Positions 2,533 through 38,049 of a DNA stretch of 64,000 nt are shown here, piece by piece. A program made the translations under genes and the position numbers. The notes beneath the pieces were generated by a model, which searched no databases, was not told where the DNA came from, and was given only the letters and a program-made list of their open reading frames with translations. Position 1 is the stretch's first letter. Each line of letters opens with the position of its first letter. The stretch is from a phage: sequence record PX393110.1, one strand, 5' to 3'.

Positions 2533-2557
2533 AGAATTAGGAGGACCGAAGTCCTCC
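2533..2557 (-). terminator. intrinsic terminator (UUCG tetraloop)
   Basis: Minus strand GGAGGAC-UUCG-GUCCUCC followed by UAAUUCUUC, after the stop at 2567. Confidence 0.6.
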
Positions 2558-2566
2558 AGATTGGAA

Positions 2567-2851
2567 TCAGAACTGGACGTCTACTTCTTCGAAGATCGCT
2601 TCGAACAGACCATCCTCACACTTAGCCACCACTGCACCGGTACCTGGGTCCAGCATCTCGACTGTATCAGAACCATCGGAAGCGAAGTGACTTTCTTCAG
2701 GAAACACTTCTGGACCAGTGTAAGCTTTGAAACCGATGATCTTTTCACCAACCGCACTTACCCAGTTGGAATTGTAGTTTACTGAAACACCCATGTAGTC
2801 AGTTACCAGAGTGTCATTTGCCAGAGCAGCGAGCAGTTGAGCGATTTTCAT
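2567..2851 (-). CDS. small acidic hypothetical protein (class-2 cassette gene)
   Basis: ATG at 2851 (MKIAQLLAAL...), directly behind the conserved class-2 leader TAATTTGGGATAAAACT. Confidence 0.55.
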   Translation of the reverse strand: MKIAQLLAALANDTLVTDYMGVSVNYNSNWVSAVGEKIIGFKAYTGPEVFPEESHFASDGSDTVEMLDPGTGAVVAKCEDGLFEAIFEEVDVQF

Positions 2852-2975
2852 AGTTTTATCCCAAATTAGACGATTTGATGAACCGGGAAGCGCCTTGACG
2901 CCCCCGCCCACAAGAACGGGCTTTAGGACGGTTCAAAAATCGTTTATTTGAAAAATAAAACGTTTTATTTTTCGT
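2852..2975 (-). promoter_or_regulatory. class-2 conserved leader/promoter cassette a
   Basis: Minus strand: AT-rich palindrome GAAAAATAAAACGTTTTATTTTTC, then CGATTTTTG, then TAAAGCCCGTTCTTGTGGGCGGGGGCG (core 2899..2929), a small GC hairpin, TAATTTGGGATAAAACT and the ATG. Confidence 0.55.
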
Positions 2976-3622: not shown

Positions 3623-3666
3623 AAAAATAGGCTGTTAACCGAGGGCGTTCCCCAAGTTAACAGCCT
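3623..3666 (-). terminator. hairpin + U-run using the class-1 motif 3' block as its 5' arm
   Basis: AGGCTGTTAAC-N16-GTTAACAGCCT (11 bp) followed by ATTTTTATTT. Confidence 0.4.
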
Positions 3667-3687
3667 TTGGACCGTATTAAACGGCGG
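3657..3687 (-). promoter_or_regulatory. class-1 motif copy 0 (variant)
   Basis: Minus strand CCGCCGTTTAATACGGTCCAAAGGCTGTTAA, about 55 nt before ATG 3601. The upstream stop (3677) lies inside the motif. Confidence 0.5.
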
Positions 3688-4825: not shown

Positions 4826-5330
4826 CTGTGTATCCTTTAAGTTTATTTCTATACTTAACCATTTCCTGCTTAGCTATCTCATCACAGAGATTATTTACTT
4901 TGTAGCGAGGATTATTGAACTTCTGATGACCTTTGACATGCTTAACCTTAATGGACTTAGGGTTAAGATCGCGAAGCATTTCCATATGCTTATCTATGAA
5001 TTCCTTTAATGCCCATTCGCAATCGCATTGGACGACTACCCTAACACCATCGAATGCTGTCTTAGTCATGGCAAACCATAGGGTCTTCATGATCCCTTCT
5101 AGCTCTGCCCAGTTATTATCTACAGCAGTAAATCCTCCGCGAGTTATATGAGCTCGCTGCTCACCAGGAAGACGAATCCATCCTCCGAAACCAGCAGCCT
5201 TACTCTTATGACAGTACGATGCATCTGAGAAGATTGTTATATAGCCCGCAGGGTCCAGACCGCGTTCGGGAGTACCCTCGAAGTGGATAACTCTACCAAC
5301 ATCTTTCTCACCGATAGCATGTTTCTTCAT
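4800..5330 (-). CDS. RNase H (type 1)
   Basis: The DEDD pattern aligns with E. coli RNase HI: FSDAS (FTDGS), AELEGI (MELMAA), QCDCEW (STDSQY), VKGH...NNLCDEIAK (VKGH..NERCDELAR). Confidence 0.75.
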   Translation of the reverse strand: MKKHAIGEKDVGRVIHFEGTPERGLDPAGYITIFSDASYCHKSKAAGFGGWIRLPGEQRAHITRGGFTAVDNNWAELEGIMKTLWFAMTKTAFDGVRVVVQCDCEWALKEFIDKHMEMLRDLNPKSIKVKHVKGHQKFNNPRYKVNNLCDEIAKQEMVKYRNKLKGYTDAGIFSGA

Positions 5331-6898
5331 TACATATCCACCGTAGTTGCCTGGAACAGACCTACCACCATTTCGTGGGACGGCTTCACGACCGGACTAT
5401 CGAAGTCAATAGAGCTGTTGATGTTCTGGTTAACCATCATCAGGCTACGTACTTCCCAGCAAGCACGATCAGTCAGTACACGGTGAATTGCTGCGGTATC
5501 ACCATCCACGTCCATGTTCTGACCACCCATCGCCATCGGAGGAACCTGAATCTCCTTACCCATGTGAGGTCTGACCTTAAATCCCCATACTGAGTAACGG
5601 TGTAGGGATGGCGCACGGTTCATGAATACCGTAGCATTTTCACACAGTCTCCAGCATACTTCCAGAGCTACTCTGGACTTATTCTTGTACATACGCTGTA
5701 CTTTATTGCTGATGTCGTACATGTTGTACCCTTCGTTAGTCGGGCCACCATATAAGTTCTCCAGCTCACCCAGGATGTCTGGCTGAAGTAATTCGTACAT
5801 CATCTTGAACGGTACACCAAGAGTATCCAGAGGAAGATGCGGAGCCGAAGTAACTACAGAACGACCAGAGTAATCAACACGCTTACCTAACAGGTTACCA
5901 CGAATGCGACCACCCTTGCCTTTAAGGTTATTGATCATCGGCTTAATCAAATTACCGCGATAGTCCTTAGTACCTTCCAGGATTAGTCCGTTAACCATCT
6001 TCTGCATTACAATAGATTCACGAGGAATCAGAGATAACAATGCTTCGCTGGCTTCAGCAGTATCACGAATACTTCTGATACGGATTGCATGGCGCAGGAT
6101 TCGCAGGTAGAGTAAGTTAGTCGGATGATACGACATTACCCCATTACTGATACCGACATCACGGTAGCTCGGAGGATTCACCAGTACTGTAGTGTTATAG
6201 AAGTCGCTGAACTCCGTATAACCACTATTGACTACTGTAGGATCTTCACACTCTTCGATATAGGCTTTCATATCGGCGTGGTTAGCTACCAATGCCTGGA
6301 TAAGACTCAGGAGACCTAATTCCGATGACTCATGCTCGGACATACGACGGATCTTAATCATTACTACTGCGAGGCGCTTCGTGCTATCCTGAACTGGGAT
6401 AGTATTAGAGTAGAACATCGCATACTTCTCACGATCTTCATATTCCGGAAGAGCTGCATTAGACTCACGAACCCGCTCCCGATCATCACCAACCATCTTA
6501 GCTGCCAAACCAGCTTCCTGAACTACGAAGCGGTATCTACCGATAAGGAACTGACCGAACTCTCTCTCTGGAAACCCGAATAACGCAGCCATACGTTTGA
6601 TAGCTAATGGATTCACATAAGGAACGATCGTCTCGATGTGACCCATACGGCGGCGACGGGATTCACGATGCATCGCTACCATACCGCATACATTACACGG
6701 AGGAGCTCCCATAACCAGCTGGTTACCACACTCACACTTACCAGTTACCAGAGGTCCGAATATTCGCTGGCAGAATAGCCCACCAGTGAATGGCTTAGGA
6801 TCATGGAACTTAAGATTATACATGCCCATGTTGGTTACTTCACCACTGGACTCGGCACGGATTACAGCATCAGTTGCAATAGATAACTTTAATTTCAT
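5330..6898 (-). CDS. multisubunit RNA polymerase beta-prime, N-terminal half
   Basis: GLFCQRIFGPLVTGKCECGN (Zn ribbon), RRRRMGHIE, NRAPSLHRYSVWGF, and the catalytic loop NMDVDGD (NADFDGD with all three Asp kept). All are collinear with the N-terminal half of bacterial RpoC. Confidence 0.85.
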   Translation of the reverse strand: MKLKLSIATDAVIRAESSGEVTNMGMYNLKFHDPKPFTGGLFCQRIFGPLVTGKCECGNQLVMGAPPCNVCGMVAMHRESRRRRMGHIETIVPYVNPLAIKRMAALFGFPEREFGQFLIGRYRFVVQEAGLAAKMVGDDRERVRESNAALPEYEDREKYAMFYSNTIPVQDSTKRLAVVMIKIRRMSEHESSELGLLSLIQALVANHADMKAYIEECEDPTVVNSGYTEFSDFYNTTVLVNPPSYRDVGISNGVMSYHPTNLLYLRILRHAIRIRSIRDTAEASEALLSLIPRESIVMQKMVNGLILEGTKDYRGNLIKPMINNLKGKGGRIRGNLLGKRVDYSGRSVVTSAPHLPLDTLGVPFKMMYELLQPDILGELENLYGGPTNEGYNMYDISNKVQRMYKNKSRVALEVCWRLCENATVFMNRAPSLHRYSVWGFKVRPHMGKEIQVPPMAMGGQNMDVDGDTAAIHRVLTDRACWEVRSLMMVNQNINSSIDFDSPVVKPSHEMVVGLFQATTVDM

Positions 6899-6913: not shown

Positions 6914-7633
6914 TCAAGGCTTAGCGACGACAGTATAGGCTTCACGAACGATTTCACGAGCTACTTTAGCCGCATGCTGAGTACCACAATACTGATGCAT
7001 GTATTTGAACTGCACAGGTTGCTGCTGGCGAAGATGATTGATATAGCGACGAAGAGTAGGATGGGTGACACTCTGGTCAGCACCACTCACTACCATCATA
7101 AACGCAAACATCTTCAAACTAGCTTCGCGTTTAGCAGGATATTTCTGCATGATGTAATCGATTACACCGTTCACCAGGAGCTTCAGATCACGAGAACGCG
7201 CTATGGGTGATTTCTGGTCTGGGCTAATGGAAGCAGGATCGATTAATTCCACACGACTTTCGCCATCATCGTCCGTTACGAGAGTAGACTCGTTAAAGGA
7301 CATTATGTGACGACGATCCATCGTTTCTTTATCTTCGTGACGAGTATCACCAGTTTTAGCCATATAACCAGTTGGGTTAACTACCCGAAGATACTCATGC
7401 GACACGATAGAGTCGGCAACGTATGGATTATTATTAACACGAGCAATGTTACGGTCTAGCGAACGTAAATCTCCTGAATCTAATGCGCTATCATAGAAGG
7501 ATAAGTCGATGTACTCGTCCCCAGTGTTAGCAATGTTGAATGTTTCATGGAACTTATAGTTAGCGGTCATTGGTCTATCCCAATTAGAGAATTCAAAGAG
7601 CGACCGCGAGGCCGCTCGGTTACCTGCTATCAA
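6914..7633 (-). CDS. hypothetical protein between the two beta-prime halves
   Basis: ORF track. A TTG start overlaps the upstream TGA (alternative ATG at 7570). No motif recognised. Confidence 0.45.
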   Translation of the reverse strand: MIAGNRAASRSLFEFSNWDRPMTANYKFHETFNIANTGDEYIDLSFYDSALDSGDLRSLDRNIARVNNNPYVADSIVSHEYLRVVNPTGYMAKTGDTRHEDKETMDRRHIMSFNESTLVTDDDGESRVELIDPASISPDQKSPIARSRDLKLLVNGVIDYIMQKYPAKREASLKMFAFMMVVSGADQSVTHPTLRRYINHLRQQQPVQFKYMHQYCGTQHAAKVAREIVREAYTVVAKP

Positions 7634-7968
7634 AGCGCGAAGTAATACCAGTCACCATAAACGCGAATCAGCACTTCCTGACTTTCTGCATCCACATTAG
7701 TGAAGTAGAAGCTACCAAATCCGAACTCCAGAGACTCACCAGTCTGCATGAGATCTGCCATTTCATCCATGAACTTATCGAAGTCCGGATCACGGTCCTG
7801 AACTACAGCGACTTCCACCTCCTTGGTGTACAATTCAGAACGACCAATATGAGGAGCAACCTGGCGGAACTCCATTACAGCACCACGAGCCAGATTTTCC
7901 TCAGCAGCATCCCGAACAGAGGCAGTATCGATTGTAGCGAAAGACTTAATTGCATTTAAACGTGACAT
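7630..7968 (-). CDS. small acidic hypothetical protein (class-2 cassette gene)
   Basis: ATG directly behind the class-2 leader TAATTTGGAGCTAATACT. Confidence 0.55.
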   Translation of the reverse strand: MSRLNAIKSFATIDTASVRDAAEENLARGAVMEFRQVAPHIGRSELYTKEVEVAVVQDRDPDFDKFMDEMADLMQTGESLEFGFGSFYFTNVDAESQEVLIRVYGDWYYFAL

Positions 7969-8776: not shown

Positions 8777-10291
8777 TTATTTGTTATTCAGATTTAACCC
8801 AGCAATGATCATCTCGGAACGGGTTCCGAAGCTAACATCACCATTAAGCACTGCCGAGGTAAGACGCTGCTTAACGTTACCGTGGCCAATAGACTTCAAC
8901 CAGCTAGGGTGCTTCGTAGGGATAGCATCAGCTTTAATCGCCAGTACCTCACCCTTATCACCCATGCTGCGAACACCGATTCGTCCGTTATTCATCTTAA
9001 CCAGATCAGTACAACCACGAGCAATGATCTCATGGTGAATCGATGCGATACCGATACCGATGTCGTCGAAGATGTGCTTAAGCTGGATTGATGCTAGCTC
9101 TGCACCCTTAATAGCCGACCCAGCTTCGTGAGCAAGATCCGTGATGCACTTATACTTAGACTCGGATACCTGAGCTACCGCAGTACCTCTACCACCTACC
9201 GTCTTCAGGATGTCAGCCAAGGTATTACTTACCGAAGTACCGAATTCCTTAAGAGTAGTCGAGCCAGATGTATGCTTACCACGAAGACCAGCCTGGGTAG
9301 ATGGTTCGGAGATATGCTGCGCCGACGCCGTTCCAATACCGAAGTTAATCGGGAAGAAGTTAGCTGGTTTAGCCGGATCCATACCGCAGCAATGCTGACA
9401 TACCCCACCCTTAGTCGATTCACAGGTAATCGGGCTAAGGACTTTAACGTTACCCTCTTCATCAGCTAACTGATCAACATTCTCCTTAGTGATCAGTACT
9501 CGATCATTAGTGAATCGATACAGTGCCGATTTCTTAGGTAGGGTAATCACTTCCTTAGTTCCGCAATCTTCTTCCACAATAGACAGCTCACGAGAGCAGT
9601 TAACCAGCTGACGAGCGAACCAGCCAGTCGCAGGTACCAGGAAGAAGTTACCAGCCAGACCCTTACGAGCAGGTCCGCAGGTGTTGAAGTAGTTGATAGG
9701 AGACAACCCGGAGCTTAAGTTCTCCATAATCGGCATCGGCATGATCTTACCAGTCATACCTACCAGAAGACCCTTAGCTACTACCATCGAGCGAACCTGG
9801 GGAGGAGATACACGAGCGCCAGATACACCCATCGCATACAGAGGATTATGACGGTCTACCTCTTTGAACCAGCGATCAGTACATTCGTTGATCACCTTAT
9901 CAGCAGCCACCAGACGATCCTCGTACTTCATCTTACCGAGTTCCTGGGTCATTGATGGGAAGTCGATACCGAAGTCAAACTTAGTGTCGTCATAGCACAA
10001 GCTAAGTCCAGACATAGTTGCTTTATGGAACCCGAACTGCTGCAACTTATGGAGTCTACGCCCAGCTACTTCCGGAGTGTAGTTATTATTGATGTGAGAG
10101 ACGATCTTCGCAGATTCCTTCTTATCGATTTCTTTTTCTGGAAGATAGCCACTGATTTCCCAAATAAACAGTCGACCGATAGTAGTTTCTTTAGGACCAT
10201 CAGAGAAGTAAAAACGCACCGGAGTGGTGTAGGTTGCTTCTTTCATATCAATAAGACGGTGTAATTCATTCAAGGACTTTGATACGATCAT
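8777..10291 (-). CDS. multisubunit RNA polymerase beta-prime, C-terminal half
   Basis: TTIGRLFIWEI, GLSLCYDD, SGARVSPPQVRSMV, bridge-helix-like CGPARKGLAGNF..TGWFARQLVN, EEDCGT, GVCQHCCG, trigger-loop-like AQHISEPSTQ, and C-terminal EMIIAGLN. All are collinear with the C-terminal half of RpoC. Confidence 0.85.
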   Translation of the reverse strand: MIVSKSLNELHRLIDMKEATYTTPVRFYFSDGPKETTIGRLFIWEISGYLPEKEIDKKESAKIVSHINNNYTPEVAGRRLHKLQQFGFHKATMSGLSLCYDDTKFDFGIDFPSMTQELGKMKYEDRLVAADKVINECTDRWFKEVDRHNPLYAMGVSGARVSPPQVRSMVVAKGLLVGMTGKIMPMPIMENLSSGLSPINYFNTCGPARKGLAGNFFLVPATGWFARQLVNCSRELSIVEEDCGTKEVITLPKKSALYRFTNDRVLITKENVDQLADEEGNVKVLSPITCESTKGGVCQHCCGMDPAKPANFFPINFGIGTASAQHISEPSTQAGLRGKHTSGSTTLKEFGTSVSNTLADILKTVGGRGTAVAQVSESKYKCITDLAHEAGSAIKGAELASIQLKHIFDDIGIGIASIHHEIIARGCTDLVKMNNGRIGVRSMGDKGEVLAIKADAIPTKHPSWLKSIGHGNVKQRLTSAVLNGDVSFGTRSEMIIAGLNLNNK

Positions 10292-11941: not shown

Positions 11942-11965
11942 GAAAAATAGGCCATCCTTGGCCTA
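11942..11965 (-). terminator. intrinsic terminator
   Basis: UAGGCCA-AGGA-UGGCCUA followed by UUUUUC, 6 nt after the stop at 11971. Confidence 0.6.
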
Positions 11966-14566: not shown

Positions 14567-17500
14567 GTTTAGGCTCCAGAGTTATTTTAGCCTTAAGCTC
14601 GATATACTTACATCCCCAGCCTGTACCGTCGGAACGAATACCGGATTTGGAGTTGAAGCTGTTAGCTATAGAGTTTAACTTCTCCTTCTCCTTAAGGATC
14701 TCTACGTATGGAGTCCACTGGCTATACTGATCGAGAGCTTCCAGTAGTTTCTCCAATGCAGACTCACGACCCTCAACGATCAGCCATCCGGAACCATCTT
14801 CGTTAACTCCATAGTCATCCAGACCCATCAAGGAACCGCCCCGAGCACCGAATTCGATATCAGTGCGCATAGGCATATCCCAGAGTTCACGAATAGCCCC
14901 CTCCATATTCTCACGAGTCTTCTGGAACACCTTGAACATCTCGTTGATTCCGGATGTGGTATCCAAGGAGTCGTGGACCATGATGTGAGTCTCGGCCTCC
15001 ATATTGGACTGCTTAAAGTCCTCATCCAGGAAGTACATACCTGCGCCAGCAACCATCGACGAAGTATTCTGGATAGGATAGTTCACCGAAGTAGAGTTAA
15101 CGTTGGTACCTTCCAGGTTGATACGGTTACCGAAGTAACCATAAGCATACCCAGTCTCGAAGCCATTTTTCTTGGTAGCATCAATCCATGCCTTAAGACC
15201 GGTAAACTTACCGAATACCGTGTCCATCAGATTCTGAGCACGCTCCATATCACCACCAGTAGCAACCATCGCTACCGATTCAAGGCTAGACTGGTATACT
15301 AATGCGAAGTTAATCGCCTTACCACCCTTACGCTCAACATCAGTTACTTCAGGTTCAGACTTCTGGTATGCAATCGAGCTAACGAATCGGTGCATGTCGC
15401 CACCAGATAAGAATACGTTCTTCATATCCGAGTCATCGGCGAACACGCTAACCATCACCAGCTCAGCCTGGCTAAAGTCCTGGTGGTACCACAGGCCACC
15501 CTCCGGCTTAGATACCCAGATGTTACGCAGAGTACTGTCGCCAGGAACGTTATGAATACCTGCCTGCCAACGAGATGTAATCGCAGCCAACGAGTTAAAG
15601 TCCGGAGTCATGATGTAGCAATCTTCACCATCCTGCAACTTCGGATTATCCCAGTCGTACTTACGAACTCGCAGCGGAGGTAAACCATCACGTAGTTTAG
15701 CTGCCCATACCGTCTGGCGTCCTACCTTACCATCAATGTATGTAGCAATCTGTTTGTAGTGACGCTTATACATCTTCAGGTCAACCATCATACGGAACGA
15801 TGTATTCCAGGTAGACTCGTCATCCGGATTAACTCCCAACATCAACTGGTGAATAGCCAATTGGGCATCGAGAACATCCGCTTTAAACTTATTCGTGAAT
15901 CGCTCTTCATAAGCTTCCAGACCGTCCTGGACGCACATGGCAATTAACTCCCGAACATGCTTAGACTCAGCAGTATCCCCGAATTGGATGATCCTGGTTA
16001 AGATCTCATCTACCGGAAACTCCCGGAAGAATTCCCTCTCCAGCTTCTCCGAATCCTTAGGCACGAACCCCTTAGAGATCGCCAGCAGGGTTTTATCCCA
16101 GTAGTCATGCACCTTAAGCTGGTCCATTACAGACCATAGCATGGTACACATCTCTACTTCATCAGTAAGATAGGCTTTCCAGAACTTCTCCTTATTAGCC
16201 TTATCGTTACTGTTAGGGTTGAAGAATCCTGACAGATCAGCAATCTTCCCAGCCAGAGTAGTAACCATCTTACGGCGCTCTTGTCCACCAGGAGTGTACC
16301 ATACGTTCTCGTACGGCAACTCTCGATAGATAAAGTCGCGAGCTGTAAGCATCTGGTCAGGAGGTAACTTAAGGTTAGGGATTAGGCTAACCAAGTGCTC
16401 CGACATTTTGCTCATGCAATAGTCGTACTCTTTAGTCGCCTCTTCGTCATCCCAACGAATACCGTTAGCTTCGAAGATAGATGCCAGGTATGGATGTAAC
16501 ATATATACGTTATACCCATCCTTATACTTATCGTAAAACATCTCGTGGATGAACACACCGTACGCGGAGTCATAGCAGCAGTACTCCCCAAGAATCTCAC
16601 GAGGAATCGCACCCCACTCATATGGGTAGAACGATGCCAAGTAAATAATCTCGGATTCTTCGAGCTCCTCCGATAGTTCGGCTATCTTATCCAGCATAAA
16701 CTGGTTGAAGTTAACAGGAATACGATTCTTAGCCGCCTTAGTCGGAGCCGCTTCCACGAGTTTCTCGTACTCAGCTTTAAGAGCTAGGTGATGCTCAATA
16801 TTGAACTCGCCAGACTGAATCTCTGCAATCTGCTCAGGAGTACAACGCTTCTTCATATCCTTGAAGATAGCTGCCCAACGATCCTTCCATTCGTGTACCG
16901 ACCCTTCCCAGAAGTCTGCATGTAAATAACGACGAGCAGCATCTTTCAACGAGCTCCGTTCGCCATGCATAGTCAGAGTTACAATCGCATCGATAAACTT
17001 GCAGAATACGTCTAACCAATGCCACGTAGTCTTAATCTCGTACGGACAGTTAAACGCCACGATCTGCTCCTGGAACTTAACCAGGAAGTCACGCAAGAAT
17101 CCTAGCTGTTCCGGAGTCTCTTTACCGGTAACATTGTACCATACGGACTTGGCATCCTTATCACCAATCTTCTTAGCGATACTGAATCCAGTGATCCGGA
17201 AGTCTACCGAGAATAAATCAGCTGCGTTAGACTCATAGTCGAGGCCGAGATAGCCTTTGTACCCAGACCACATAATGTCGTTAAGGAACTCCTGGAGGCC
17301 GTTCCAGTCGACGAATTCCCACTCTACATTATATTCGGATTCTTTCTGGCCGAATACCAGAAACTTAAAACGATCAATCCACGAATCAAGTATACCAGGA
17401 TCAGAATCCAGATTACGTTCAACCTGGGCATGGTGCATGACTACAGCTAGCTTAAAGTTATACTCCGGTATGTTACCCAGAGGGAACTTCAGTAGCTTAT

Positions 17501-20807: not shown

Positions 20808-21396
20808 TGCCAATAGTCTCTTTAACCAGGTGCTCTATTGAACTACCATGTGCCATATGGAGAAGAGACTGGAGAGTACCCATCCATACATCATCACTCA
20901 CTTCGTCTTTGTACTTATTGAAGCAGGTACTGAAGATGTTGCGGCAGTTCTCCAGCTCGCTTTCGCCAAAGAAGATGTTACCCATGCTGAACTCAGTCAT
21001 GATCTCACGAGATACCGCAATAGCATCTGCAACTTTACAGATGAACTTAGCTTCGGCAGATGCAGGAGTGCGGAAAGTAGGAAGTACCTCTTCCCAGATT
21101 TCCTGCTCAACTTTATTCAGAGTCTCTTTTAACTCTGGGAAGCGAGCCTTAGCAGTGTAGGGGACATCACCTGTAAAGATCTCTGGAATGTCGTGAACCA
21201 ACGAGTACTGATTTACTTCCAGACCCTGCTCAGCAGTTAAAAATCCATCCATCACCAGTTTCTGAACAATCAGAGTAGAGTAGTAAGTAACTTCGAAGCT
21301 ATGCTCCGAGATAGTAGAGCGATGAGACAGTACTTGCTTACCTGCGAAACGATTCACGTTATTGGTACACACTGGTACCTTAAAAAGATCTTTCAT
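20797..21396 (-). CDS. HD-domain 5'-deoxynucleotidase (YfbR-like)
   Basis: TISEHSFEV ... LVHDIPEIFTGDVP match YfbR (ENVSEHSLQV ... LYHDASEVLTGDLP). Confidence 0.7.
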   Translation of the reverse strand: MKDLFKVPVCTNNVNRFAGKQVLSHRSTISEHSFEVTYYSTLIVQKLVMDGFLTAEQGLEVNQYSLVHDIPEIFTGDVPYTAKARFPELKETLNKVEQEIWEEVLPTFRTPASAEAKFICKVADAIAVSREIMTEFSMGNIFFGESELENCRNIFSTCFNKYKDEVSDDVWMGTLQSLLHMAHGSSIEHLVKETIGNAD

Positions 21397-21415: not shown

Positions 21416-21448
21416 AAAAATAAAGGTATGGAAGTTGCCTCCCACACC
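21416..21448 (-). terminator. promoter-proximal hairpin + U-run
   Basis: GGTGTGG...CCATACC followed by TTTATTTTT. The stem is 7 bp with one G-U pair that is valid only in minus-strand RNA. Confidence 0.4.
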
Positions 21449-21479
21449 TTAACAGCCTTTCGAGCCCTAAAAAGAGCGG
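21449..21479 (-). promoter_or_regulatory. class-1 motif copy 3
   Basis: CCGCTCTTTTTAGGGCTCGAAAGGCTGTTAA. It abuts the upstream stop (21480) and lies 52 nt before ATG 21396. Confidence 0.6.
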
Positions 21480-22553: not shown

Positions 22554-23272
22554 TTAGAGTCCTTACGCACTGAATCAATAGACTTAACTGCAGAGGACAG
22601 TAACTCCAGACGGGCCTCCTGAGGGATCATACCAGATGGCTCGTTCAGGATCATAATACCTTTACCAGTATTAGTAAAACGAGCTGTGATTGATCCAGGA
22701 TACACCGGATGATTCAGAGTTACAGAATTACACAACGCAGCACCGAATCGCTCCTCGTAGGCACGCATAGTTACCTTAAGGAGAGTAGAACTGACTGCTA
22801 CAGAGTATTCAGGATCAACAACACGGAAGTTATTGTCCTCAATACTCTTATCCTTCGTATTGAAGAACAGAGTCATGTTATAATAATCAATAGACTCGTT
22901 ACTGAGACGTAATGCCTCATCACGAGCTTCCTGGCTGGCAAACATACTGTTATGCAGCAGGAAGTAAACGTACGAATCGAATACCGCACGATCACTGACG
23001 ATCAACTCGCCACGATTGTAGGCATCCTTGAACATCTGAGTTCGCTGACGAATAAGACGCAGCTGGAACTCTACCGCTTCCATAGGATCTTCTACAGCTA
23101 AGCGCAGAATATCCATATGGGATGTTACTCCCAGAGGAAGATGGTCACGAGTCTGTACTGCACGGAAGGTACATTCGGTTGATTCTTCCCAACCTTTAGC
23201 CAGGGTAGATTTACCGGTACCCTGCGCACCAGACATAATTACACTGTAGCCTGGGATACTATAGTCTCTCAT
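22550..23272 (-). CDS. P-loop nucleotide (dNMP/deoxynucleoside-type) kinase
   Basis: P-loop SGAQGTGKST and DRAVFDSYVY (dNK/TMPK-like). ATG at 23272 with GGAGAG RBS. ATGA overlap with the next gene. Confidence 0.6.
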   Translation of the reverse strand: MRDYSIPGYSVIMSGAQGTGKSTLAKGWEESTECTFRAVQTRDHLPLGVTSHMDILRLAVEDPMEAVEFQLRLIRQRTQMFKDAYNRGELIVSDRAVFDSYVYFLLHNSMFASQEARDEALRLSNESIDYYNMTLFFNTKDKSIEDNNFRVVDPEYSVAVSSTLLKVTMRAYEERFGAALCNSVTLNHPVYPGSITARFTNTGKGIMILNEPSGMIPQEARLELLSSAVKSIDSVRKDSK

Positions 23273-23304
23273 TATTCTCTCCAATTAAGAATCTTTCCCA
23301 CATT

Positions 23305-23361: not shown

Positions 23362-24333
23362 CTAGCTAAACTTATACCAGCGAGGTCTCATACGGATCTC
23401 GTGATTCAGTTTATGTAGTTTCGAGAATTCGCAGAATGAGTTGGTGAACATCTGGCGAGTATAGAATCGCTCATCCTCTGGCATGAAGTGGAACCATTTC
23501 TCCGGTTCCCATGAATACCCGAAATGTGCACATATCTCTTTGATGTTCTGATACCACCATTCCACGAATACCTGATAACCACAGGGAGGATTCTGGTCAT
23601 TAATCATGTACCATACCCCATCCTGAGTCCCAGGTCCACATACGATAGCGTCATTATCTGTATACGCAGTCTCTTTAGAGTAGGACATAGTTGCCCAGCA
23701 TTGATATGCCATGAACGGACCTAATCCAGATACCTGTAACAGATGCTCGATAGCCTCGGTAGCGAACGGAGACTTCCATGCCCATAAGATAGGATCACTG
23801 TAGGTCTTCACCAGATAGGCTCTGGCAGCTACACTGTACTTAATATCCTCTGGACATACTTCATTAGCCATCTTAACTGCTGTGCTAAGGAAGTAGGCAT
23901 TTGATTGCTGTGGAGCGGTGAACGGAGGACCATCCTCATAACGACGTAGCTCTTCGCGACCCATGTTATGTATGTCGTCATAGCTCATCTCATAAAGAGG
24001 AAGGACTCTGCGGAAGCGATCCATATATGAATCACCACGGTTTATCATCTGGAAGAGTACTACATTAAGTGCTTTACTCTCCCAGCTTAAAGAATCGTTC
24101 TCCAGAATGTTCTTAATAGCCCACACTGTTTCACGATCGTGCTTACGGAACACGTTAGTGAATTTGAACTTACTAATCCACTTATGTTCCGTCCACGGAG
24201 GAGGCAGCTTAAGCACCTCCTTCTTATAATAAACCTCTGTACGTTCACGGTTATACTCCACATACTCCCGTAACTCCTCAGGATTTATCATCCCAAGGAG
24301 TCCTTCGTAATGCAGACCTAACGGTGTTGACAT
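23362..24333 (-). CDS. hypothetical protein inside the modification island
   Basis: ORF track. TAATG coupling to the upstream glycosyltransferase. Trp/Tyr-rich. A DNA base-modification enzyme (for example pyrophosphorylase-type) is suspected from context only. Confidence 0.35.
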   Translation of the reverse strand: MSTPLGLHYEGLLGMINPEELREYVEYNRERTEVYYKKEVLKLPPPWTEHKWISKFKFTNVFRKHDRETVWAIKNILENDSLSWESKALNVVLFQMINRGDSYMDRFRRVLPLYEMSYDDIHNMGREELRRYEDGPPFTAPQQSNAYFLSTAVKMANEVCPEDIKYSVAARAYLVKTYSDPILWAWKSPFATEAIEHLLQVSGLGPFMAYQCWATMSYSKETAYTDNDAIVCGPGTQDGVWYMINDQNPPCGYQVFVEWWYQNIKEICAHFGYSWEPEKWFHFMPEDERFYTRQMFTNSFCEFSKLHKLNHEIRMRPRWYKFS

Positions 24334-26500: not shown

Positions 26501-27112
26501 TTATCCAATTTGACGAACTAAGCGAAACCCTTCGGCGTACGGCCACTGGGCGGAATATCCACGTAAGGTGGCTAGGGCTAAGATACTCTGGGTATCTCGG
26601 TCTGACTTAATCTGGGAGTCGAATCGTCCCATAGCCTGGCACTTACACTCAATATCGTCCTTATTCAGACGCTCGAAGTAATTAGGTTCCATCTGACCGA
26701 ACTGGGTCAGGGACTCGGCATACTCATATTCCAGGATAAGCCAGTTATACGCTCGGAGAGCTACACGAGCAGCATGATTAACTAGTTGATGGTCCTGGTG
26801 TAGGCTACTGAACGGAATATAGACTACATCCGGCCTGATTTTAGCAACATAGTCCGCAATATCCTTAGCCAATTGCGGAATATCCTTCTGAGTCATACCA
26901 TCGCCTGTGGAGGCATCGTTACGCTCCAGGCAATGTACTTCTTTGATATTCGGATAGACACCGAATGCTGCTTCGGCTTCGCCACGACGGGTCTCGTCCG
27001 GAGCAGTTACTTCGAGGATGAAGAATTGGTCATCGCGGAATTTGCTCATAATACCTCCGCAACCCAGAATCTCATCATCGTGATGTGGGCTGATAATCAG
27101 TCGTGACTTCAT
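26501..27112 (-). CDS. PIG-L/LmbE-family N-acetyl-sugar deacetylase
   Basis: IISPHHDDEILGCGG (family motif PHPDDE..G.GG) and the downstream SLHQDHQ metal-binding motif. Confidence 0.75.
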   Translation of the reverse strand: MKSRLIISPHHDDEILGCGGIMSKFRDDQFFILEVTAPDETRRGEAEAAFGVYPNIKEVHCLERNDASTGDGMTQKDIPQLAKDIADYVAKIRPDVVYIPFSSLHQDHQLVNHAARVALRAYNWLILEYEYAESLTQFGQMEPNYFERLNKDDIECKCQAMGRFDSQIKSDRDTQSILALATLRGYSAQWPYAEGFRLVRQIG

Positions 27113-27129: not shown

Positions 27130-27163
27130 CAAAAATGGGGTTAGGCCGTAGAGACCTAACCCC
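27130..27163 (-). terminator. promoter-proximal hairpin + U-run
   Basis: GGGGTTAGG-N9-CCTAACCCC followed by ATTTTTG. It lies between class-1 copy 6 and ATG 27112. Confidence 0.45.
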
Positions 27164-29564: not shown

Positions 29565-29586
29565 TAGCCACCTCGTAAGATGGCTA
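29565..29586 (-). terminator. hairpin after methyltransferase gene
   Basis: TAGCCA-N10-TGGCTA followed by an AU-rich tract, upstream of class-1 copy 7. Confidence 0.3.
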
Positions 29587-29594
29587 TGTATATA

Positions 29595-30335
29595 TTACTT
29601 TAATTCGGAGAGATCTGCTATCTTCACCTTAGCTGTTACATCCCAGATTCCTTCACCAAATCCGGTATCTTCCAGCAGCTTAGGCACTTCACGTTTCTGT
29701 ACCTTAGACTGCTCGTACTTAAGCAGAGGAATATTACCGGTCTTATCCGATTGATCCCACAGATAAGTAGCAGCACCAATGTTATCGAACAGTGCGAGAT
29801 CTGGATTAAACTGGGTAAGGAGTCGGCAGTCCCAGTGAGATTTATGTTCCTCGAAAGGATTAGTCTCCGTACCACGCTGACGATACTCGTAGTTAGGAGT
29901 ACCGATCACGATTTTAGCCTTAGACTGGAATAGCTTAGACAACACCATAAGCCCATCTTCGCTATCCAGATGCTCCAACACATCTAGCCAGATAATAGTG
30001 CCGAATTTATCCAGCTCTTCAATAGGAAGATCTTTCAGCAGTTCAACGATATTGCAGATGTAGATATCGCTATATACATTTACACTGCCTTTGATGTAGT
30101 CTTCGCAGATGTCCAGACCTGTGATCTGACCTTCGAATCCTGCGTTACGGAGAGCTAGACCGATCTCTCCACGACCTAATCCCATATCCAGGATTGGCCC
30201 GGAGATAATTTCGTTACGGAGCATCCATTGGAGAAAGTGCTTCTGGACTAAGTAGGAGGTACCTCCGTTGCCCAGTGAAGCCTTCGTGACCTTAGTACCA
30301 GGAACGAAGTTACACTCGATATGTTTACCAAACAT
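29595..30335 (-). CDS. class I SAM-dependent methyltransferase
   Basis: Motif I ILDMGLGRGEIGLAL, acidic motif II GLDI, and IIWLDVLEHL. Confidence 0.7.
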   Translation of the reverse strand: MFGKHIECNFVPGTKVTKASLGNGGTSYLVQKHFLQWMLRNEIISGPILDMGLGRGEIGLALRNAGFEGQITGLDICEDYIKGSVNVYSDIYICNIVELLKDLPIEELDKFGTIIWLDVLEHLDSEDGLMVLSKLFQSKAKIVIGTPNYEYRQRGTETNPFEEHKSHWDCRLLTQFNPDLALFDNIGAATYLWDQSDKTGNIPLLKYEQSKVQKREVPKLLEDTGFGEGIWDVTAKVKIADLSELK

Positions 30336-30361: not shown

Positions 30362-30392
30362 TTAACAGCCTTTGGAGCCGTAAAAGAAGCGG
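30362..30392 (-). promoter_or_regulatory. class-1 motif copy 8
   Basis: CCGCTTCTTTTACGGCTCCAAAGGCTGTTAA, 26 nt before ATG 30335 and 12 nt downstream of a canonical UUCG terminator. Confidence 0.65.
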
Positions 30393-30404: not shown

Positions 30405-30434
30405 CCAAAAATTAGGGTGACCGAAGTCACCCTA
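30405..30434 (-). terminator. intrinsic terminator (UUCG tetraloop)
   Basis: UAGGGUGAC-UUCG-GUCACCCUA followed by AUUUUUGG, 6 nt after the topoisomerase stop. Confidence 0.7.
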
Positions 30435-30439: not shown

Positions 30440-31687
30440 TTACAGTTTACCGATCATCTTCTGAATCATCTCATCAGAAGTCTGATTCTCTACCTTAGCA
30501 CGACGCTCTTGCAGATTAGCAATGCGGTCGTCGTGATCTTTCTTACGCAACATGCTAATGCTACGGCTAAGGCAGGAATTCAACACTTCCTGGGTAATAC
30601 CGAGAGCTTTGATGATCTGAGCATCAGACTTATCCTGCATAACCAGCTCGCCCACTTTAGGAAGAATCTGGTAAATCTCGATGTCTCGGTCAATCTTCTT
30701 AAGCGACTCAGTCTTATGGACGGAGAATGCCTGATTGTAGAGAGCCATCGTGACTGCAATCCAGTCGCGAATACCCATCGTCACCAATTGGCCATTATAA
30801 GCTACCTGGATACGATGCGAGCGGTTCATGTAAGCAATATTCATGCATGCTTCGTGAACCTCGTCCATATCGATGGTTCTGATACGTGGAGCCTTCATTA
30901 CTCGGATATAGATCTTATCCTTGGACATGTTCTTGACCAGGATCTTACCTTCGGACAGCCACTTATTCAGGAAGCCGATGCGAGGAGTAATCACCTCACC
31001 AGACCCGATGATGTCGATGGTATCGGTATTGACACGAGTCACCTTAAGGCTAAGACCGAGGCGACCTACACCAGTTTCCCACAGCTGCTTAAGGTCAGAC
31101 TTAGCAGGCACGATATCGTAACCGTACTGAGCCTTAAGCAGATTGTAGTCATCATGCTCATAAGCATCCAGCAGTGACTCATAGGTGAACGCTGGAATAC
31201 GAGACTGAATCCCCGTAGCCCATGAGAAGGTACCGTACATCAGAGCATACGGAATCGGCACCGGAAGGTACGCATATTCCATCTTCTCTTCACCTTCCAC
31301 CTGCGGAACATAGTCCGCTAAGCCGAAGTAGTACTCTGCACGATCTTCGTTCAGGCCAACCTTCGTGTAACGAGGAGCCGCACCAGGTACTTCTTCCAAC
31401 AGTTTCACACCGAAGGAACCCTGACCATCAATAGCTCCGATACGAGCCAGACGAGAGATAGTTCCATCGATAGACTGGTCGCCGAATGGGTGGAGCGACT
31501 GAGTCTCGGAGATAGCACTCAGAGTCCCAACCAGCTTCCCGCGAGCAATGCTATTCAGCGCCATGTAGATACGACGCTGAGCAGGAATCAGGCCATCGAT
31601 ACCAGGAACTACACGATGAAGAGCACAGTACACACTGTAGTCAGTGTAGTTCTTGGTGATGAATTCAGAAATCTTTACCTGTTCCAT
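30440..31687 (-). CDS. type II DNA topoisomerase, GyrA/T4 gp52-like cleavage subunit
   Basis: DGLIPAQRRIYMAL and the catalytic-Tyr segment GAAPRYTKVGL (GyrA AAMRYTE). Confidence 0.8.
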   Translation of the reverse strand: MEQVKISEFITKNYTDYSVYCALHRVVPGIDGLIPAQRRIYMALNSIARGKLVGTLSAISETQSLHPFGDQSIDGTISRLARIGAIDGQGSFGVKLLEEVPGAAPRYTKVGLNEDRAEYYFGLADYVPQVEGEEKMEYAYLPVPIPYALMYGTFSWATGIQSRIPAFTYESLLDAYEHDDYNLLKAQYGYDIVPAKSDLKQLWETGVGRLGLSLKVTRVNTDTIDIIGSGEVITPRIGFLNKWLSEGKILVKNMSKDKIYIRVMKAPRIRTIDMDEVHEACMNIAYMNRSHRIQVAYNGQLVTMGIRDWIAVTMALYNQAFSVHKTESLKKIDRDIEIYQILPKVGELVMQDKSDAQIIKALGITQEVLNSCLSRSISMLRKKDHDDRIANLQERRAKVENQTSDEMIQKMIGKL

Positions 31688-33711: not shown

Positions 33712-33742
33712 TTAACAGCCTTTGGAGGGCTCAAAGGAGCGG
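33712..33742 (-). promoter_or_regulatory. class-1 motif copy 9
   Basis: CCGCTCCTTTGAGCCCTCCAAAGGCTGTTAA, 36 nt before ATG 33675. The upstream stop lies inside the motif. Confidence 0.6.
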
Positions 33743-34236: not shown

Positions 34237-34354
34237 GATTTTATCCCAAATTAGAAGAGCCGCAGCGGGAACGCCCCGCCACCCAAAAGAACGGGCTTAA
34301 AGACGGCTCATAAATCGTTTTATTTTTCATTATTTGAAAAATAAAATAATCTAC
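34237..34354 (-). promoter_or_regulatory. class-2 cassette e
   Basis: Core 34272..34304 TTAAGCCCGTTCTTTTGGGTGGCGGGGCG, then hairpin GCGGG-GCGTT-CCCGC and TAATTTGGGATAAAATC. AT inverted repeat TTTTATTTTTCA/TGAAAAATAAAA upstream. Confidence 0.55.
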
Positions 34355-34380
34355 ACAAAAATGGGGTCCGAAGACCCCAT
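34355..34380 (-). terminator. intrinsic terminator (UUCG tetraloop)
   Basis: AUGGGGUC-UUCG-GACCCCAU followed by UUUUGUG, 5 nt after the SbcCD-like stop. Confidence 0.7.
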
Positions 34381-34384
34381 CTAA

Positions 34385-37150
34385 CTACTCTTCCATAAAC
34401 GTAGTTACGTTATTGGAAAGGTAGGCACCGATTTTAGTATTATATCTCTGGAACGTAGGTACATGAGTAACCAGGATGATGTGATTAACCGGAATGTCCT
34501 GGAGAGCATCGATAGCTATGTCCAGAGTATTCACATCCAGATTCTTCAACGACTCATCCAGAATCAGGCATCCAGCACCTTTACTAAGGCTAATCAGCTT
34601 ACCGATGAACAGTACGTCCACCAGGTTCTGCTGACCACCAGAGAGATCAGAATACGGAATCAGGAACTCACCGACTTTGTATTGAACATCAAAGTCAATC
34701 TTGATATTTCCATTAGCCTGTTCACGAACGGTAGAGATGACCATATCACCACCAGTCATCATCGCAGCCACTTCCTTAAAGATAGAAGCAGTTACGTCAC
34801 CGCTATTAGTGAACAGATTCTGATACTCCACCAGCTTCTGATACTTAGGCTGAAGAGTAGCCAGCTCAGAGTTAGCCTTATCCAGCTTCGTCTGAGCATC
34901 GTCCATACGAGACTTAAGACTACGAAGAGTAGCCATAGCTCCGATAGTGGAGTTAATCTCGATAAGCTCTTGTTCCAGCTTAGCGACTTCCTCTTCCAGA
35001 ACTTGCACGGAGGAATAGGACTTAGTCTTATTCTTAAGCACTTCCACATCGCTATTGACGGTATGAATCTTCTGGCGAAGAGTGGCCACATCGTTTAGCA
35101 GACCGGACTTACGACGGAGTTCGACTAATTCGTTATTCTTAAGAGCCAGCTTCTGTCGGATTTCATCAGACTTAGGAGCCTTACTTATCTCAGCTTCCAC
35201 AGCATCCAACTTAGACACAGATACAGATCCCTGTGTCTCGAGCTCATCCATCTTACTTCTGATAGAGCTCTGTACCTGCTTAATGTCCTCTTCCTTAAGA
35301 GACTGTTTACAGGTAGGACAGGTAGTGGGAATATTCCGCATTTCTGTCTCTAACTTAGTCAACTCCTGTTCCAGACGAGTCAACTCCTTAGTTAGAGATT
35401 CGCTCTGGTTATGGAGCGAACGAATATTCCCTTCTACTTCCGACACTTCGGCATCTAGCAGAGTAATTTCGCCACGGACATTAGCGAGTGCGGAGTTAAC
35501 CTCTTCTTCGCTAAAGTCTATATTGAACGCAGCCAGCGAGTCTTCCAACATCTGAAGACTCTGTAGCTTACTATCCAAATTACCCAGCTCCCGGATCTTC
35601 TGACGAATATCATCAATCTGAGGAAGGATTCGGGATTTAGCCTCTTCCAGATCACTTACGTCCTTGAGTCTGGAGAAATCGTGATCCTCCATCGTCTTAA
35701 GGACTTCTTCCTGAGCAGTAACCTGAGTCTGGAGATTACCGATCTCTACCTTACAGTTCTTAGCCGAGGCCTTTGCGACAGCTTCGTACTGGTTAATTAC
35801 GGTAAGACCAAGCATCTTCGTTATCAGGTTGATACGCTCGTTGAATCCGAACTGGCTAAGGAACGGAGGACTGTTCTGGGAGCGGTACAGAAGATCGAAG
35901 TGTTCGAGGAATGGCAGCATCTCCCAGAGCTTAGCTTCACGCTCACGAATACTTCCGCCATCCATCTCATCGCCATCAATCCAGACTCGGAACGTCTGAC
36001 CACCAGCCCAATGGCGACTGATCAGGAATTCACGACCACCATACTCCAGCATCACTTCTACCAGAAGATGGTCCTGACCGAGTCTCACCACGTTACGAGG
36101 ACTGTCGCTACCAGTTAAGCAGTAGTTCAGAGCTCGTAACAGCGAGGATTTACCATTACCGGTTTCGCCGTAGAGATAAGTCAGACCTTTCTTAAAGTCC
36201 AGCTCCAACTTATCGATGCTACGGAAGTTCTCTACCTTAATGCTATTTAAGGTAAAGTTGAGGTCGAATACCGACTCGGAACGATCAACGTGGGTAGACA
36301 TCTCATCATGGATATCTTTAAGACCTTTAGCCCGAACGACTTTATCGATAACTTCTTCGACATCAATAGACTTAACCGAGATGCGTGAAGCATCCATCAT
36401 CTGAGCTCGTTCACGAACTACCAGATGTGGGTAATTGTCCAATCCGACAGGAACCTCATCTTCCCAGTACATCTTTAAGTACTTAAAGGAATCAGACTCT
36501 ACCGGAACCCGCTGCCAGGAAAGATCTTTGAGATCCAGCAGTACCAGACTGCCTTCCTGACTATCACCCATCCCATGAGGAATAGGCACGTTCACCGAGT
36601 GAGTATGACCGATGCTGATAGGACGGTGGATGTCACCCGCAAATCCCAGATCGTACTTAGTATCGTCGAACTCCTGACCGAACATCGAGGACAGGGTAAT
36701 ATGGCCGATTAGGACATCTACTTTATCCTGGATGAAGCTAAAGTCCTGAGTCGGACGCCAGTCGCTGAAGGCGACCTTACGGCCACCTAAGTTCAGGATC
36801 TTACCATCGACATACTCCGCCTTACCAGCCAGGATCGGCACCAGCGAGTTCTGATAGTGATCAGCATCTACCGATTTGGAGTTAATGTCGTGGTTACCCA
36901 GAATGTAGTAAATCTCGGAGAACTGCTCACCGAGGATGTCCATAAACTGGGAAGTAGCATGTGCAATCTTAGGCTCGTGCTGAGCCTTATGCACCAAGTC
37001 GCCAGCGATAGATAGGCAAGTAACTTTATGTTCCTTACCCATCTCCACCATACGATGAGCCAATCTGATAAACTGCTTTAGCCGAAACCCTTCCGAGTTA
37101 TGTTGCTGAAACTCATGAATATGAATATCAGCAGCAATTAACATTTTCAT
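34385..37150 (-). CDS. fused Mre11/SbcD-like nuclease + Rad50/SbcC-like ATPase
   Basis: N-terminal phosphoesterase motifs AADIHIHE, AGDLVH, GNHD, IGHITL, GDIH, GHTHS. Then Walker A GETGNGKSSLL, long coiled coil with a CPTC zinc hook, signature LSGGQQ, and Walker B LILDES. Confidence 0.85.
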   Translation of the reverse strand: MKMLIAADIHIHEFQQHNSEGFRLKQFIRLAHRMVEMGKEHKVTCLSIAGDLVHKAQHEPKIAHATSQFMDILGEQFSEIYYILGNHDINSKSVDADHYQNSLVPILAGKAEYVDGKILNLGGRKVAFSDWRPTQDFSFIQDKVDVLIGHITLSSMFGQEFDDTKYDLGFAGDIHRPISIGHTHSVNVPIPHGMGDSQEGSLVLLDLKDLSWQRVPVESDSFKYLKMYWEDEVPVGLDNYPHLVVRERAQMMDASRISVKSIDVEEVIDKVVRAKGLKDIHDEMSTHVDRSESVFDLNFTLNSIKVENFRSIDKLELDFKKGLTYLYGETGNGKSSLLRALNYCLTGSDSPRNVVRLGQDHLLVEVMLEYGGREFLISRHWAGGQTFRVWIDGDEMDGGSIREREAKLWEMLPFLEHFDLLYRSQNSPPFLSQFGFNERINLITKMLGLTVINQYEAVAKASAKNCKVEIGNLQTQVTAQEEVLKTMEDHDFSRLKDVSDLEEAKSRILPQIDDIRQKIRELGNLDSKLQSLQMLEDSLAAFNIDFSEEEVNSALANVRGEITLLDAEVSEVEGNIRSLHNQSESLTKELTRLEQELTKLETEMRNIPTTCPTCKQSLKEEDIKQVQSSIRSKMDELETQGSVSVSKLDAVEAEISKAPKSDEIRQKLALKNNELVELRRKSGLLNDVATLRQKIHTVNSDVEVLKNKTKSYSSVQVLEEEVAKLEQELIEINSTIGAMATLRSLKSRMDDAQTKLDKANSELATLQPKYQKLVEYQNLFTNSGDVTASIFKEVAAMMTGGDMVISTVREQANGNIKIDFDVQYKVGEFLIPYSDLSGGQQNLVDVLFIGKLISLSKGAGCLILDESLKNLDVNTLDIAIDALQDIPVNHIILVTHVPTFQRYNTKIGAYLSNNVTTFMEE

Positions 37151-38004
37151 GCCGACTCCAGTATCTTAGCCGTAACGCATCTGTTGTACTTACCCAGTAC
37201 ACCATGGAAATACGGAGGAAATCTGTGACCTGGACAGAACTCTTCCAGAGTCGGTAAGATACGCTGTTGCATCTGTACCTTAGACTCCTGCTCCTTAATG
37301 ATGTTGTGGACTTCGGTATCAGTCAGAATCCTGTCGAGTCGCATTAGCTCCATATTGGAACGAACACGGAACTCTACCGATTGGCTTAGCGAACCATCTT
37401 TGTAAGCGTTAATCGCTTCCTTAACAGTCTTCAAGCCAGTAGCCACTCCTGGAATGTTGTCGGAGCCGTCCCCGACGATGGCTTTGTAGATGAGGTAATC
37501 CTTATGATCATCCAGATCGTAGGTCTTCATCAACCAGGGAAGATCTACTAAACCATCATCCGGATTCAGGACACAAGTATTCTCATTAATGGATAAGTAC
37601 CAGTCTCGGTCTCGTGAGTGTAACATGACCGGACGACCAGAATGAGCATAGTAGTAGCCTAAATCATCGGCTTCCACACCAGACACCTGGATACATTTAA
37701 TACCCAGCGACGGGAAGATCTGCTCGTGAAGAACATTCATAGCAGCCCACAATGCTTCGAAACTCTCGTCGTACTCACGATTGGCCTTATACTCTGGATT
37801 CTTATCCTTAGGTCTGTATCGCCACTTACCCCGATCGTACAGCATGATTAGTTCGGAGCTATATCCGTCTTCCTTAATCAACTTCGCTACACTACCGATA
37901 GTAGAGGCGACTGTAGGACCTAAATCCTGAGACTTACCGGCTGCGAACCAGTTACGAAGCGTCAACCACTGACAATCGACTGGTATTAACGGTATATCAT
38001 TCAT
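37147..38004 (-). CDS. 5'-3' exonuclease / flap endonuclease (T4 RNase H / FEN family)
   Basis: GVEADDLGYYYA and the H3TH motif VGDGSDNIPGV. Confidence 0.8.
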   Translation of the reverse strand: MNDIPLIPVDCQWLTLRNWFAAGKSQDLGPTVASTIGSVAKLIKEDGYSSELIMLYDRGKWRYRPKDKNPEYKANREYDESFEALWAAMNVLHEQIFPSLGIKCIQVSGVEADDLGYYYAHSGRPVMLHSRDRDWYLSINENTCVLNPDDGLVDLPWLMKTYDLDDHKDYLIYKAIVGDGSDNIPGVATGLKTVKEAINAYKDGSLSQSVEFRVRSNMELMRLDRILTDTEVHNIIKEQESKVQMQQRILPTLEEFCPGHRFPPYFHGVLGKYNRCVTAKILESA

Positions 38005-38020
38005 AGTCTACCTAGAGCGT

Positions 38021-38049
38021 CAAAAATAAAGGGACCGAAGTCCCTTTAT
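38021..38049 (-). terminator. intrinsic terminator (UUCG tetraloop)
   Basis: AUAAAGGGAC-UUCG-GUCCCUUUAU followed by UUUUUG, after the SSB-like gene. Confidence 0.7.

Follow-up and report, generated by a model that had tools for sequence, protein, structure and literature searches.

What do four hairpins with one and the same C(UUCG)G loop do at the ends of phage genes, and are they copies of a single element? We address this question for a 64,000-nt stretch of phage record PX393110.1 (hereafter the window), in which the four sites, here called T1, T2, T3 and site T4 (as distinct from phage T4), all lie on the minus strand and were read directly. The window comes from a lytic myophage of E. 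coli and shares about 90-97% identity with vB_EcoM_IME392 (MH719082, 116 kb; hereafter IME392) and EP_H11 (OP688485, 111 kb). The original prediction had placed four such hairpins here, and reading the sites confirmed both their positions and their loops; it had also regarded them as a near-identical family of uniform design, selected for very efficient termination or 3'-end protection behind highly expressed or operon-final genes, and this part needs considerable revision. Taken together, our observations suggest that the four elements are quite likely RNA-level intrinsic terminators and 3'-end hairpins that close early and middle transcription units of this phage.

At all four sites (4/4) CTTCGG forms the apex of the hairpin, with the UUCG closed by a C-G pair, and the 4-nt loop caps a perfect stem of 7, 9, 10 or 11 bp containing 4-5 G-C pairs; these dimensions fall within those of intrinsic terminators, whose GC-rich stems have about 5-14 bp and whose loops have 3-8 nt. 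Each hairpin stands in sense orientation, 3-11 nt past a coding-strand stop codon. T1 (GGAGGAC-UUCG-GUCCUCC, 7 bp, 2557..2540, minus) is found 10 nt past the stop of a 114-aa open reading frame (ORF) without known function (2567..2911); T2 (UAGGGUGAC-UUCG-GUCACCCUA, 9 bp, 30434..30413, minus) 6 nt past the stop of the gene for topoisomerase II subunit A (topoA, 30440..31687); T3 ((AG)AUGGGGUC-UUCG-GACCCCAU(UU), 34382..34359, minus, with a GC core of 8 bp, or 10 bp with the outer pairs) 3 nt past the stop of an Mre11-Rad50 fusion gene (34385..37150); and site T4 (AAUAAAGGGAC-UUCG-GUCCCUUUAUU, 11 bp with A-tract and U-tract arms, 38050..38025, minus) 11 nt past the stop of a 344-aa ORF without known function (38061..39095). 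A canonical U-run directly 3' of the stem is present at T2 (AUUUUUGG, 30412..30405), at T3 (UUUUUGUG, the whole element spanning 34353..34382) and at site T4 (UUUAUUUUUG, tail UUUG, element 38021..38050), whereas the tail of T1 (UAAUUCUUCC, 2539..2530) holds a weak, interrupted U-run (UAAUUCUU), and so the statement that a U-run follows every hairpin stands for three sites and only weakly for T1. Similarly, the GAC-UUCG-GUC core that had been ascribed to all four is present at T1, T2 and site T4, but at T3 the loop-adjacent pairs are GUC/GAC.

Hairpins of this kind are far more frequent than expected by chance. Compared with 500 dinucleotide-preserving shuffles of the window, UUCG-loop hairpins with a stem of at least 7 bp number 5 versus 0.42 (0/500 shuffles reach 5), and those with a stem of at least 9 bp number 4 versus 0.056 (0/500). 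The hexamer CTTCGG was observed 63 times with 27 expected, and among the 256 tetraloops capping stems of at least 7 bp TTCG is the commonest in the window, IME392 and EP_H11 alike. Segments of 46-51 nt around the four sites fold at -13.4 (T1) to -16.8 kcal/mol, with folding z-scores of -2.0 (T1), -4.0 (T2), -3.6 (T3) and -4.9 (site T4), and the hairpins on their own at -12.0 to -15.5 kcal/mol. A fifth UUCG hairpin (15143..15122, minus, with a stem of 9 bp) falls within the coding sequence of the family-A DNA polymerase, where it encodes part of the protein (codons ..YGYFGNR..); because it is without a U-run and one of its pairs is broken in IME392, it is probably a coding coincidence, and we rejected it as a functional element. 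At gathering thresholds Rfam recognised two tRNAs in the window and no family at T1-T4.

Comparison with the close relatives points to the RNA as the level at which these elements act. T1-T4 are all present in IME392 and EP_H11, though the flanking coding sequence carries substitutions, and the hairpins of T1, T3 and site T4 are identical in both. In IME392 T2 reads GUGGC-UUCG-GCCAC in place of GUGAC-UUCG-GUCAC, a compensatory change from A-U to G-C that keeps the pairing and at the same time abolishes the GAC/GUC core (now GGC/GCC). Moreover, the loop on the coding strand is always UUCG and never CGAA, both here (4/4) and among the intergenic hairpins of the full related genomes (7/7), which argues for a function at the RNA level; all seven of the latter are in sense orientation and 5/7 have U-runs. 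Combined, the sense orientation and the compensatory change in one stem support the proposed likeness to terminators or 3'-end hairpins.

The four elements do not appear to be copies of one another. In an alignment of the four sites with their flanks, the invariant positions are confined to G.CUUCGG.C (a core of ~10 nt) and scattered U's, without the similarity through stems and flanks that marks a REP/MITE-like family, and because only the core is common to the sites we favour convergent design over a repeat family. Further evidence comes from eight contigs retrieved from a protein database, in which topoA is 43-75% identical and the topoB-topoA synteny is kept. Three of these (L016, L017 and L020, with topoA 56-75% identical) have a GC-rich hairpin and UAUUUUUGU right after the topoA stop, with loops of UAAG, 8 nt and 9 nt, and in two of the three the promoter-like motif B (described below) comes next. 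The more distant L018, L019 and L023 have other hairpins with weaker tails in the gap after topoA, while in L021 and L022 the gap itself is missing. Across about 100 kb of these relatives a terminator-like UUCG hairpin was found once, after the L021 Mre11-Rad50 gene. Since the relatives keep a hairpin but with other loops, it is hairpin plus U-run that is the selected feature at this position. The UUCG cap is specific to the lineage, an optimisation reached by convergence on hairpins that were built independently, and its style matches that of terminators of the E. coli host and phage T4. Thus, of the near-identical family with different outer stems, the differing stems hold up; the near-identity shrinks to the ~10-nt core and is lost in the distant relatives. 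Searches of IMG/VR with the topoA and Mre11-Rad50 proteins gave no further relatives, and a metagenome scan with topoA gave no match.

Nor is the design uniform within the phage, as UUCG occurs in 4 of about 10 terminator-like hairpins found between genes on the coding strand of the window, and in 5 of about 13 hairpin-plus-U-run sites of the whole EP_H11 genome. The remaining loops in the window are UCGC (7617..7598), AGGA (11965..11948), GCAA (21450..21423), UCUAC (27163..27137) and UACG, the last with a poor tail (29586..29565), all on the minus strand, and UUAUU on the plus strand (57506..57534). The UUAUU hairpin stands after the major capsid gene and at -21.6 kcal/mol is the most stable in the window, so that the most highly expressed gene does without UUCG. 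The genes that do end at T1-T4, a topoisomerase subunit, the Mre11-Rad50 fusion and two ORFs without known function, likewise give no support to the idea that such hairpins follow highly expressed genes. We also considered a special role for the GAC/GUC pairs and rejected it as unestablished, since it is post hoc, T3 is inverted and T2 of IME392 and the phage T4 hairpins have GGC/GCC; an A-U second pair is seen in 4/5 of the U-run UUCG terminators genome-wide. RNase III sites were likewise rejected on the stem length of 7-11 bp. Outside the window, three hairpins without a U-run have in common the outer stem UAUAG(G/A)...C(C/U)CUAUG-U, with UUCG loops in two and UGAU in one (IME392 6766-6791, 113293-113318 and 115902-115925; EP_H11 40313-40338, 47654-47677 and 50248-50273), and these form a separate small family of the early region.

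When the intergenic regions were printed in sense orientation, two recurring promoter-like motifs emerged that place the hairpins within transcription units. Motif B, (C)CGCTCTTTT-N8-10-AAAGGCTGTTAA(NN)TG, is highly conserved and intergenic; 17 exact copies of its core stand in the window, each of them on the coding strand (3657-3668, 14264-14275, 17865-17876, 21449-21460, 23305-23316, 27180-27191, 30362-30373, 33712-33723, 39157-39168, 44364-44375, 45354-45365, 46819-46830, 48051-48062, 48233-48244, 48291-48302, 48898-48909 and 50244-50255, minus); with up to 2 mismatches there are 25 versus 4.6 expected. IME392 has 24 exact cores, and EP_H11 has 21, or 24 with one mismatch allowed. Motif B is probably a phage-specific promoter, and as its TGT-TAnnnT part resembles an extended -10 element it may be used by host sigma-70 together with a phage activator. 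Motif A, with 4 copies (2912-2964, 7969-8075, 11866-11970 and 34237-34384, minus), consists of an AT-rich block (TTTATTTTTCAAATAA..CGATTTTTG) followed by AAAGCCCGTTCTT (CTAAAGCCCGTTCTTTTGGGTGG) and a GC-rich hairpin; it has AAAG.C.GTT in common with motif B and may represent a different temporal promoter class. We infer that both are phage-specific promoters. A scan of IMG/VR with the motif B 17-mer gave 7 single matches, one copy each and with no further motif copies, which we rejected as chance matches and not relatives.

With these motifs the order of the units can be read along the minus strand. A motif A (core 2912..2924) precedes the 114-aa ORF in a one-gene unit that ends at T1; a motif B (33712..33723) precedes topoB-topoA in a unit that ends at T2, and 40 nt downstream of T2 another motif B, with core AAAGGCUGUUAA (30362..30373), would be the promoter of a methyltransferase gene (29595..30335). 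FEN and Mre11-Rad50 lead to T3, after which comes a motif A core, (U)AAGCCCGUUCUU (34287..34299), preceded by its AT-rich block; and a motif B (39157..39168) precedes the 344-aa ORF in a one-gene unit that ends at site T4. The operon-final placement that had been proposed is thus borne out by the conserved motifs.

Bacterial multisubunit polymerases pause on a U-run, and the hairpin formed behind them by the nascent RNA destabilises the weak rU:dA hybrid; with a cUUCGg cap such a hairpin nucleates faster and is more stable. A similar sequence of events would fit here: a multisubunit RNA polymerase would transcribe the element, the nascent RNA would fold into a GC-rich hairpin of 7-11 bp nucleated by cUUCGg, hairpin and weak rU:dA hybrid over the U-run would together release the transcript, and the hairpin left at the 3' end would then shield the mRNA from 3'->5' exonucleases, such protection being a viable co-function. 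If the phage DNA is hypermodified (see below), the modified T's of the U-run would lie on the non-template strand and the rU:dA hybrid itself would be unaffected. We infer termination, its efficiency and the responding polymerase (that of the host or the split-beta' enzyme of the phage) from features of the sites; T2 and T3, each with its own promoter-like motif next, are probably strong terminators, and termination is probably only partial at T1, with its weak U-run, and at site T4, because no promoter could be recognised for the genes that follow these two, which would depend on read-through.

Several observations weigh against intrinsic termination as the role of these hairpins. The covariation is a single event, and the other three stems are invariant in the only two close relatives. 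The T1 tail satisfies nothing stricter than a 5-of-8 U rule, and two further UUCG hairpins in IME392 and EP_H11 (of the UAUAGG...CCUAUG type) lack a U-run, so that UUCG hairpins in this phage are not always terminators. The phage also encodes its own split-beta' RNA polymerase, a possible reader of T1-T4. Lastly, no motif A or B was found after T1 or site T4, where the next genes start 20-33 nt downstream; for the gene after site T4, a 5'-3' exonuclease (37147..38004), the distance is 20 nt and holds no promoter motif. A sigma-70 consensus scan gave fewer promoter-like matches than shuffles and none convincing after either site. These genes apparently depend on read-through, and full termination at T1 and site T4 would silence them; together with the poor T1 U-run this argues against very efficient termination, envisaged earlier for all four sites, at these two.

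The same observations lend some weight to another explanation, that the hairpins serve chiefly in mRNA stability or processing, as barriers to 3'->5' exonucleases at processed ends, with transcription largely continuing through them, a role that has been proposed for many CUUCGG hairpins of phage T4 without U-runs. The weak U-run of T1, the missing promoter motifs after T1 and site T4 and the two extra hairpins without U-runs would all fit, many CUUCGG hairpins of phage T4 also lack U-runs, and the roles given for such hairpins in the literature are varied and include mRNA stabilisation (PMC8948821). Nevertheless, we regard this explanation as rather unlikely. T2, T3 and site T4 have canonical U-runs directly 3' of the stem, promoter-like motifs come next after both T2 and T3 in the usual terminator-then-promoter layout, and the distant relatives keep a U-run with the hairpin after topoA; besides, the two functions are compatible with each other.

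A different possibility begins from the polymerase. In EP_H11 a position directly downstream of motif B, or overlapping it, is taken by 6 of 13 stable intergenic hairpins with other loops but by none of the 7 with UUCG (hypergeometric p about 0.04, a contrast that is marginal and post hoc). Within the window, motif B leads straight into a stable hairpin or makes up one of its arms, in some cases with a U-run, at 3627-3668, 17855-17895, 21423-21460, 25428-25452 and 27137-27191 (minus); a hairpin and U-run follow motif B at 21450..21423 (GCAA loop) and 27163..27137, and at 3668..3627 a motif-B palindrome is followed by TATTTTTATTT. Such motif-B-linked hairpins could be overlapping terminator-promoter pairs, or 5'-UTR (untranslated region) hairpins or attenuators like the 5'-UTR terminators reported for phage phiKZ. 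One might speculate that UUCG hairpins after stops and non-UUCG hairpins at motif B are two classes of signal, read differently by the host and split-beta' polymerases, which we think improbable; if true, the UUCG set would enforce the boundaries of early and middle units for one enzyme only, which would amount to a terminator code specific to a polymerase in a phage whose DNA is hypermodified. Less probable still is the stricter version, in which the gene-end UUCG hairpins stop one polymerase (e.g. that of the host, in early units) and so give temporal control, with motif-B transcripts of the phage polymerase ignoring UUCG hairpins or obeying promoter-proximal ones. The split-beta' enzyme, the EP_H11 contrast and the two hairpins with U-runs after motif B speak for it; however, the status of motifs A and B as promoters is itself deduced, a differing response of the two polymerases is conjecture, and the multisubunit polymerases of phiKZ do terminate at signals made of a hairpin and a U-rich tail (PMC10914365). 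Finally, it is hardly credible that the sites act at the DNA level, whether as palindromes bound by a protein or as copies of a small dispersed or mobile repeat, or that they are palindromes by chance, for although the stems are palindromic and the 10-nt core GAC-TTCG-GTC recurs at three sites, the shuffles exclude chance, similarity ends at the core and T-run, the loop keeps one strand, T2 has changed by compensation and the position is always just past a stop codon.

The hairpins are real, non-random and functional-looking, but of a long-known kind, the design having been on record for phage T4 and E. coli since 1988. According to the passage of PMC8948821 that cites Tuerk et al. 1988 (PNAS 85:1364), (X)nCUUCGG(Y)n hairpins are common between phage genes, especially in T4, and PMC4371310 says in its passage on the subject that the extraordinary stability of the loop was first reported from phage T4 mRNA (Tuerk et al. 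1988 is also cited in PMC3972237). In the first 50 kb of phage T4 we counted 9 coding-strand CUUCGG hairpins whose stems reach 6 bp or more, mostly GGC-UUCG-GCC. Like those described here, they are short GC-rich C(UUCG)G stems that are intergenic, on the coding strand and often right after genes, and their density is similar or higher (9 in 50 kb versus 4 in 64 kb here, or 7 in 111 kb). In contrast, the loop-adjacent pairs in phage T4 are mostly GGC/GCC and here mostly GAC/GUC, many phage T4 copies have no U-run, phage T4 relies on the host polymerase only whereas this phage has a split beta', and the two phages show no sequence relationship.

UUCG and GAAA tetraloops are named as features of rho-independent terminators where PMC3972237 cites d'Aubenton Carafa, Brody and Thermes 1990 (J Mol Biol 216:835). 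T2, T3 and site T4 conform to the E. coli type, in which the tetraloop is UUCG or GNRA, with a GC-rich stem, a tetraloop, a U-run directly after it and a place downstream of a stop; the differences are that the T1 U-run is weak, that terminator function is here read from sequence and that the transcribing polymerase may be a non-host one. For phiKZ, which uses its own multisubunit polymerases only, ONT-cappable-seq mapped 133 termination regions, and the predicted intrinsic terminators are mostly a hairpin with a U-rich tail, 61 of them with one motif (PMC10914365). That phage likewise has multisubunit polymerases and a recurring terminator design, but its terminators conserve the stem sequence throughout (CCYCCCC...GGGRRGG, then TTAT). 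In the present phage no more than the loop with the 1-2 pairs next to it recurs, on otherwise unrelated stems, and UUCG is found in less than half of the terminators, unlike a uniform family of the phiKZ type. The 12-mer GGAC(UUCG)GUCC, given as a model hairpin by Cheong, Varani and Tinoco 1990 as cited in PMC3972237 and, within a 14-mer, as the nuclear magnetic resonance structure treated in PMC2811024, is present exactly in T1 and site T4. Because of this identity the structure and unusual stability of these two cores are already known; the model is a biophysical one and no genetic element, and the identity has no bearing on function.

On their own the hairpins add unannotated terminators to a poorly annotated phage group, which is minor, and provide another case of convergent reuse of the cUUCGg cap in E. 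coli phages. Combined with motifs A and B, they allow a first map of transcription units to be drawn for the arm of an IME392/EP_H11-type phage that carries the replication and DNA-modification genes, and T1-T4 are ready substrates for asking whether a non-canonical phage multisubunit RNA polymerase obeys bacterial intrinsic terminators.

That arm comprises the minus-strand genes up to about 50.2 kb, for replication, nucleotide metabolism and DNA modification; plus-strand genes for terminase, capsid and tail begin at 50.36 kb. The split beta' subunit of a multisubunit RNA polymerase is encoded at 5330..6898 and 8777..10291 (minus), with Rpb1 domains 1-2 in one ORF, domains 3-5 in the other and further ORFs between, including an extra one (7630..7968) that is absent in EP_H11; beta-like RNA polymerase subunits were not recognisable with Pfam. 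The gene ending at T3 is a single 921-aa ORF (34385-37150, minus) in which an Mre11-like phosphoesterase (Metallophos, residues 1-184) is fused to a Rad50/SbcC-like ATPase with a zinc hook; the IME392 annotation says no more of it than hypothetical. IME392 and EP_H11 have been grouped with phages of probable hypermodified thymidine (PMC12686479; bioRxiv 10.1101/2025.03.26.645540), and a thymidine hypermodification cluster is present at 19505-29493 (minus). It holds genes for a YfbR-like 5'-deoxynucleotidase (20797..21396), a thymidylate-synthase-like protein (21480..22553), an AAA_28 protein (22550..23284), a 5-hydroxymethyldeoxyuridine (5-hmdU) DNA kinase (23362..24333; Pfam HMUDK_hel, E = 5e-35) and a PIG-L deacetylase (26501..27112), all on the minus strand. 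A preprint's passage on phage RP13 describes a 5-hmdU DNA kinase as not detectable there, unlike in this phage, where Pfam detects it. Within the cluster also lies a full-length BCCT-family (betaine/carnitine/choline) transporter (27199-28581, minus; Pfam E = 4e-92), an unusual gene for a lytic phage, whose product might bring in a substrate of the DNA modification. Two tRNA genes, Met-CAU (46979-47054) and Arg-UCU (47200-47276, both minus), lie in a gene-poor stretch at 46.2-48.3 kb that also holds several motif B copies. Directly behind the terminator at 11965..11948, and upstream of a motif A core, comes an AT-rich inverted repeat of 19 bp (UAUUUUUCAAAAAUAUUUU / GAAAUGUUUUUGAAAAAUA, 11904-11949, minus).

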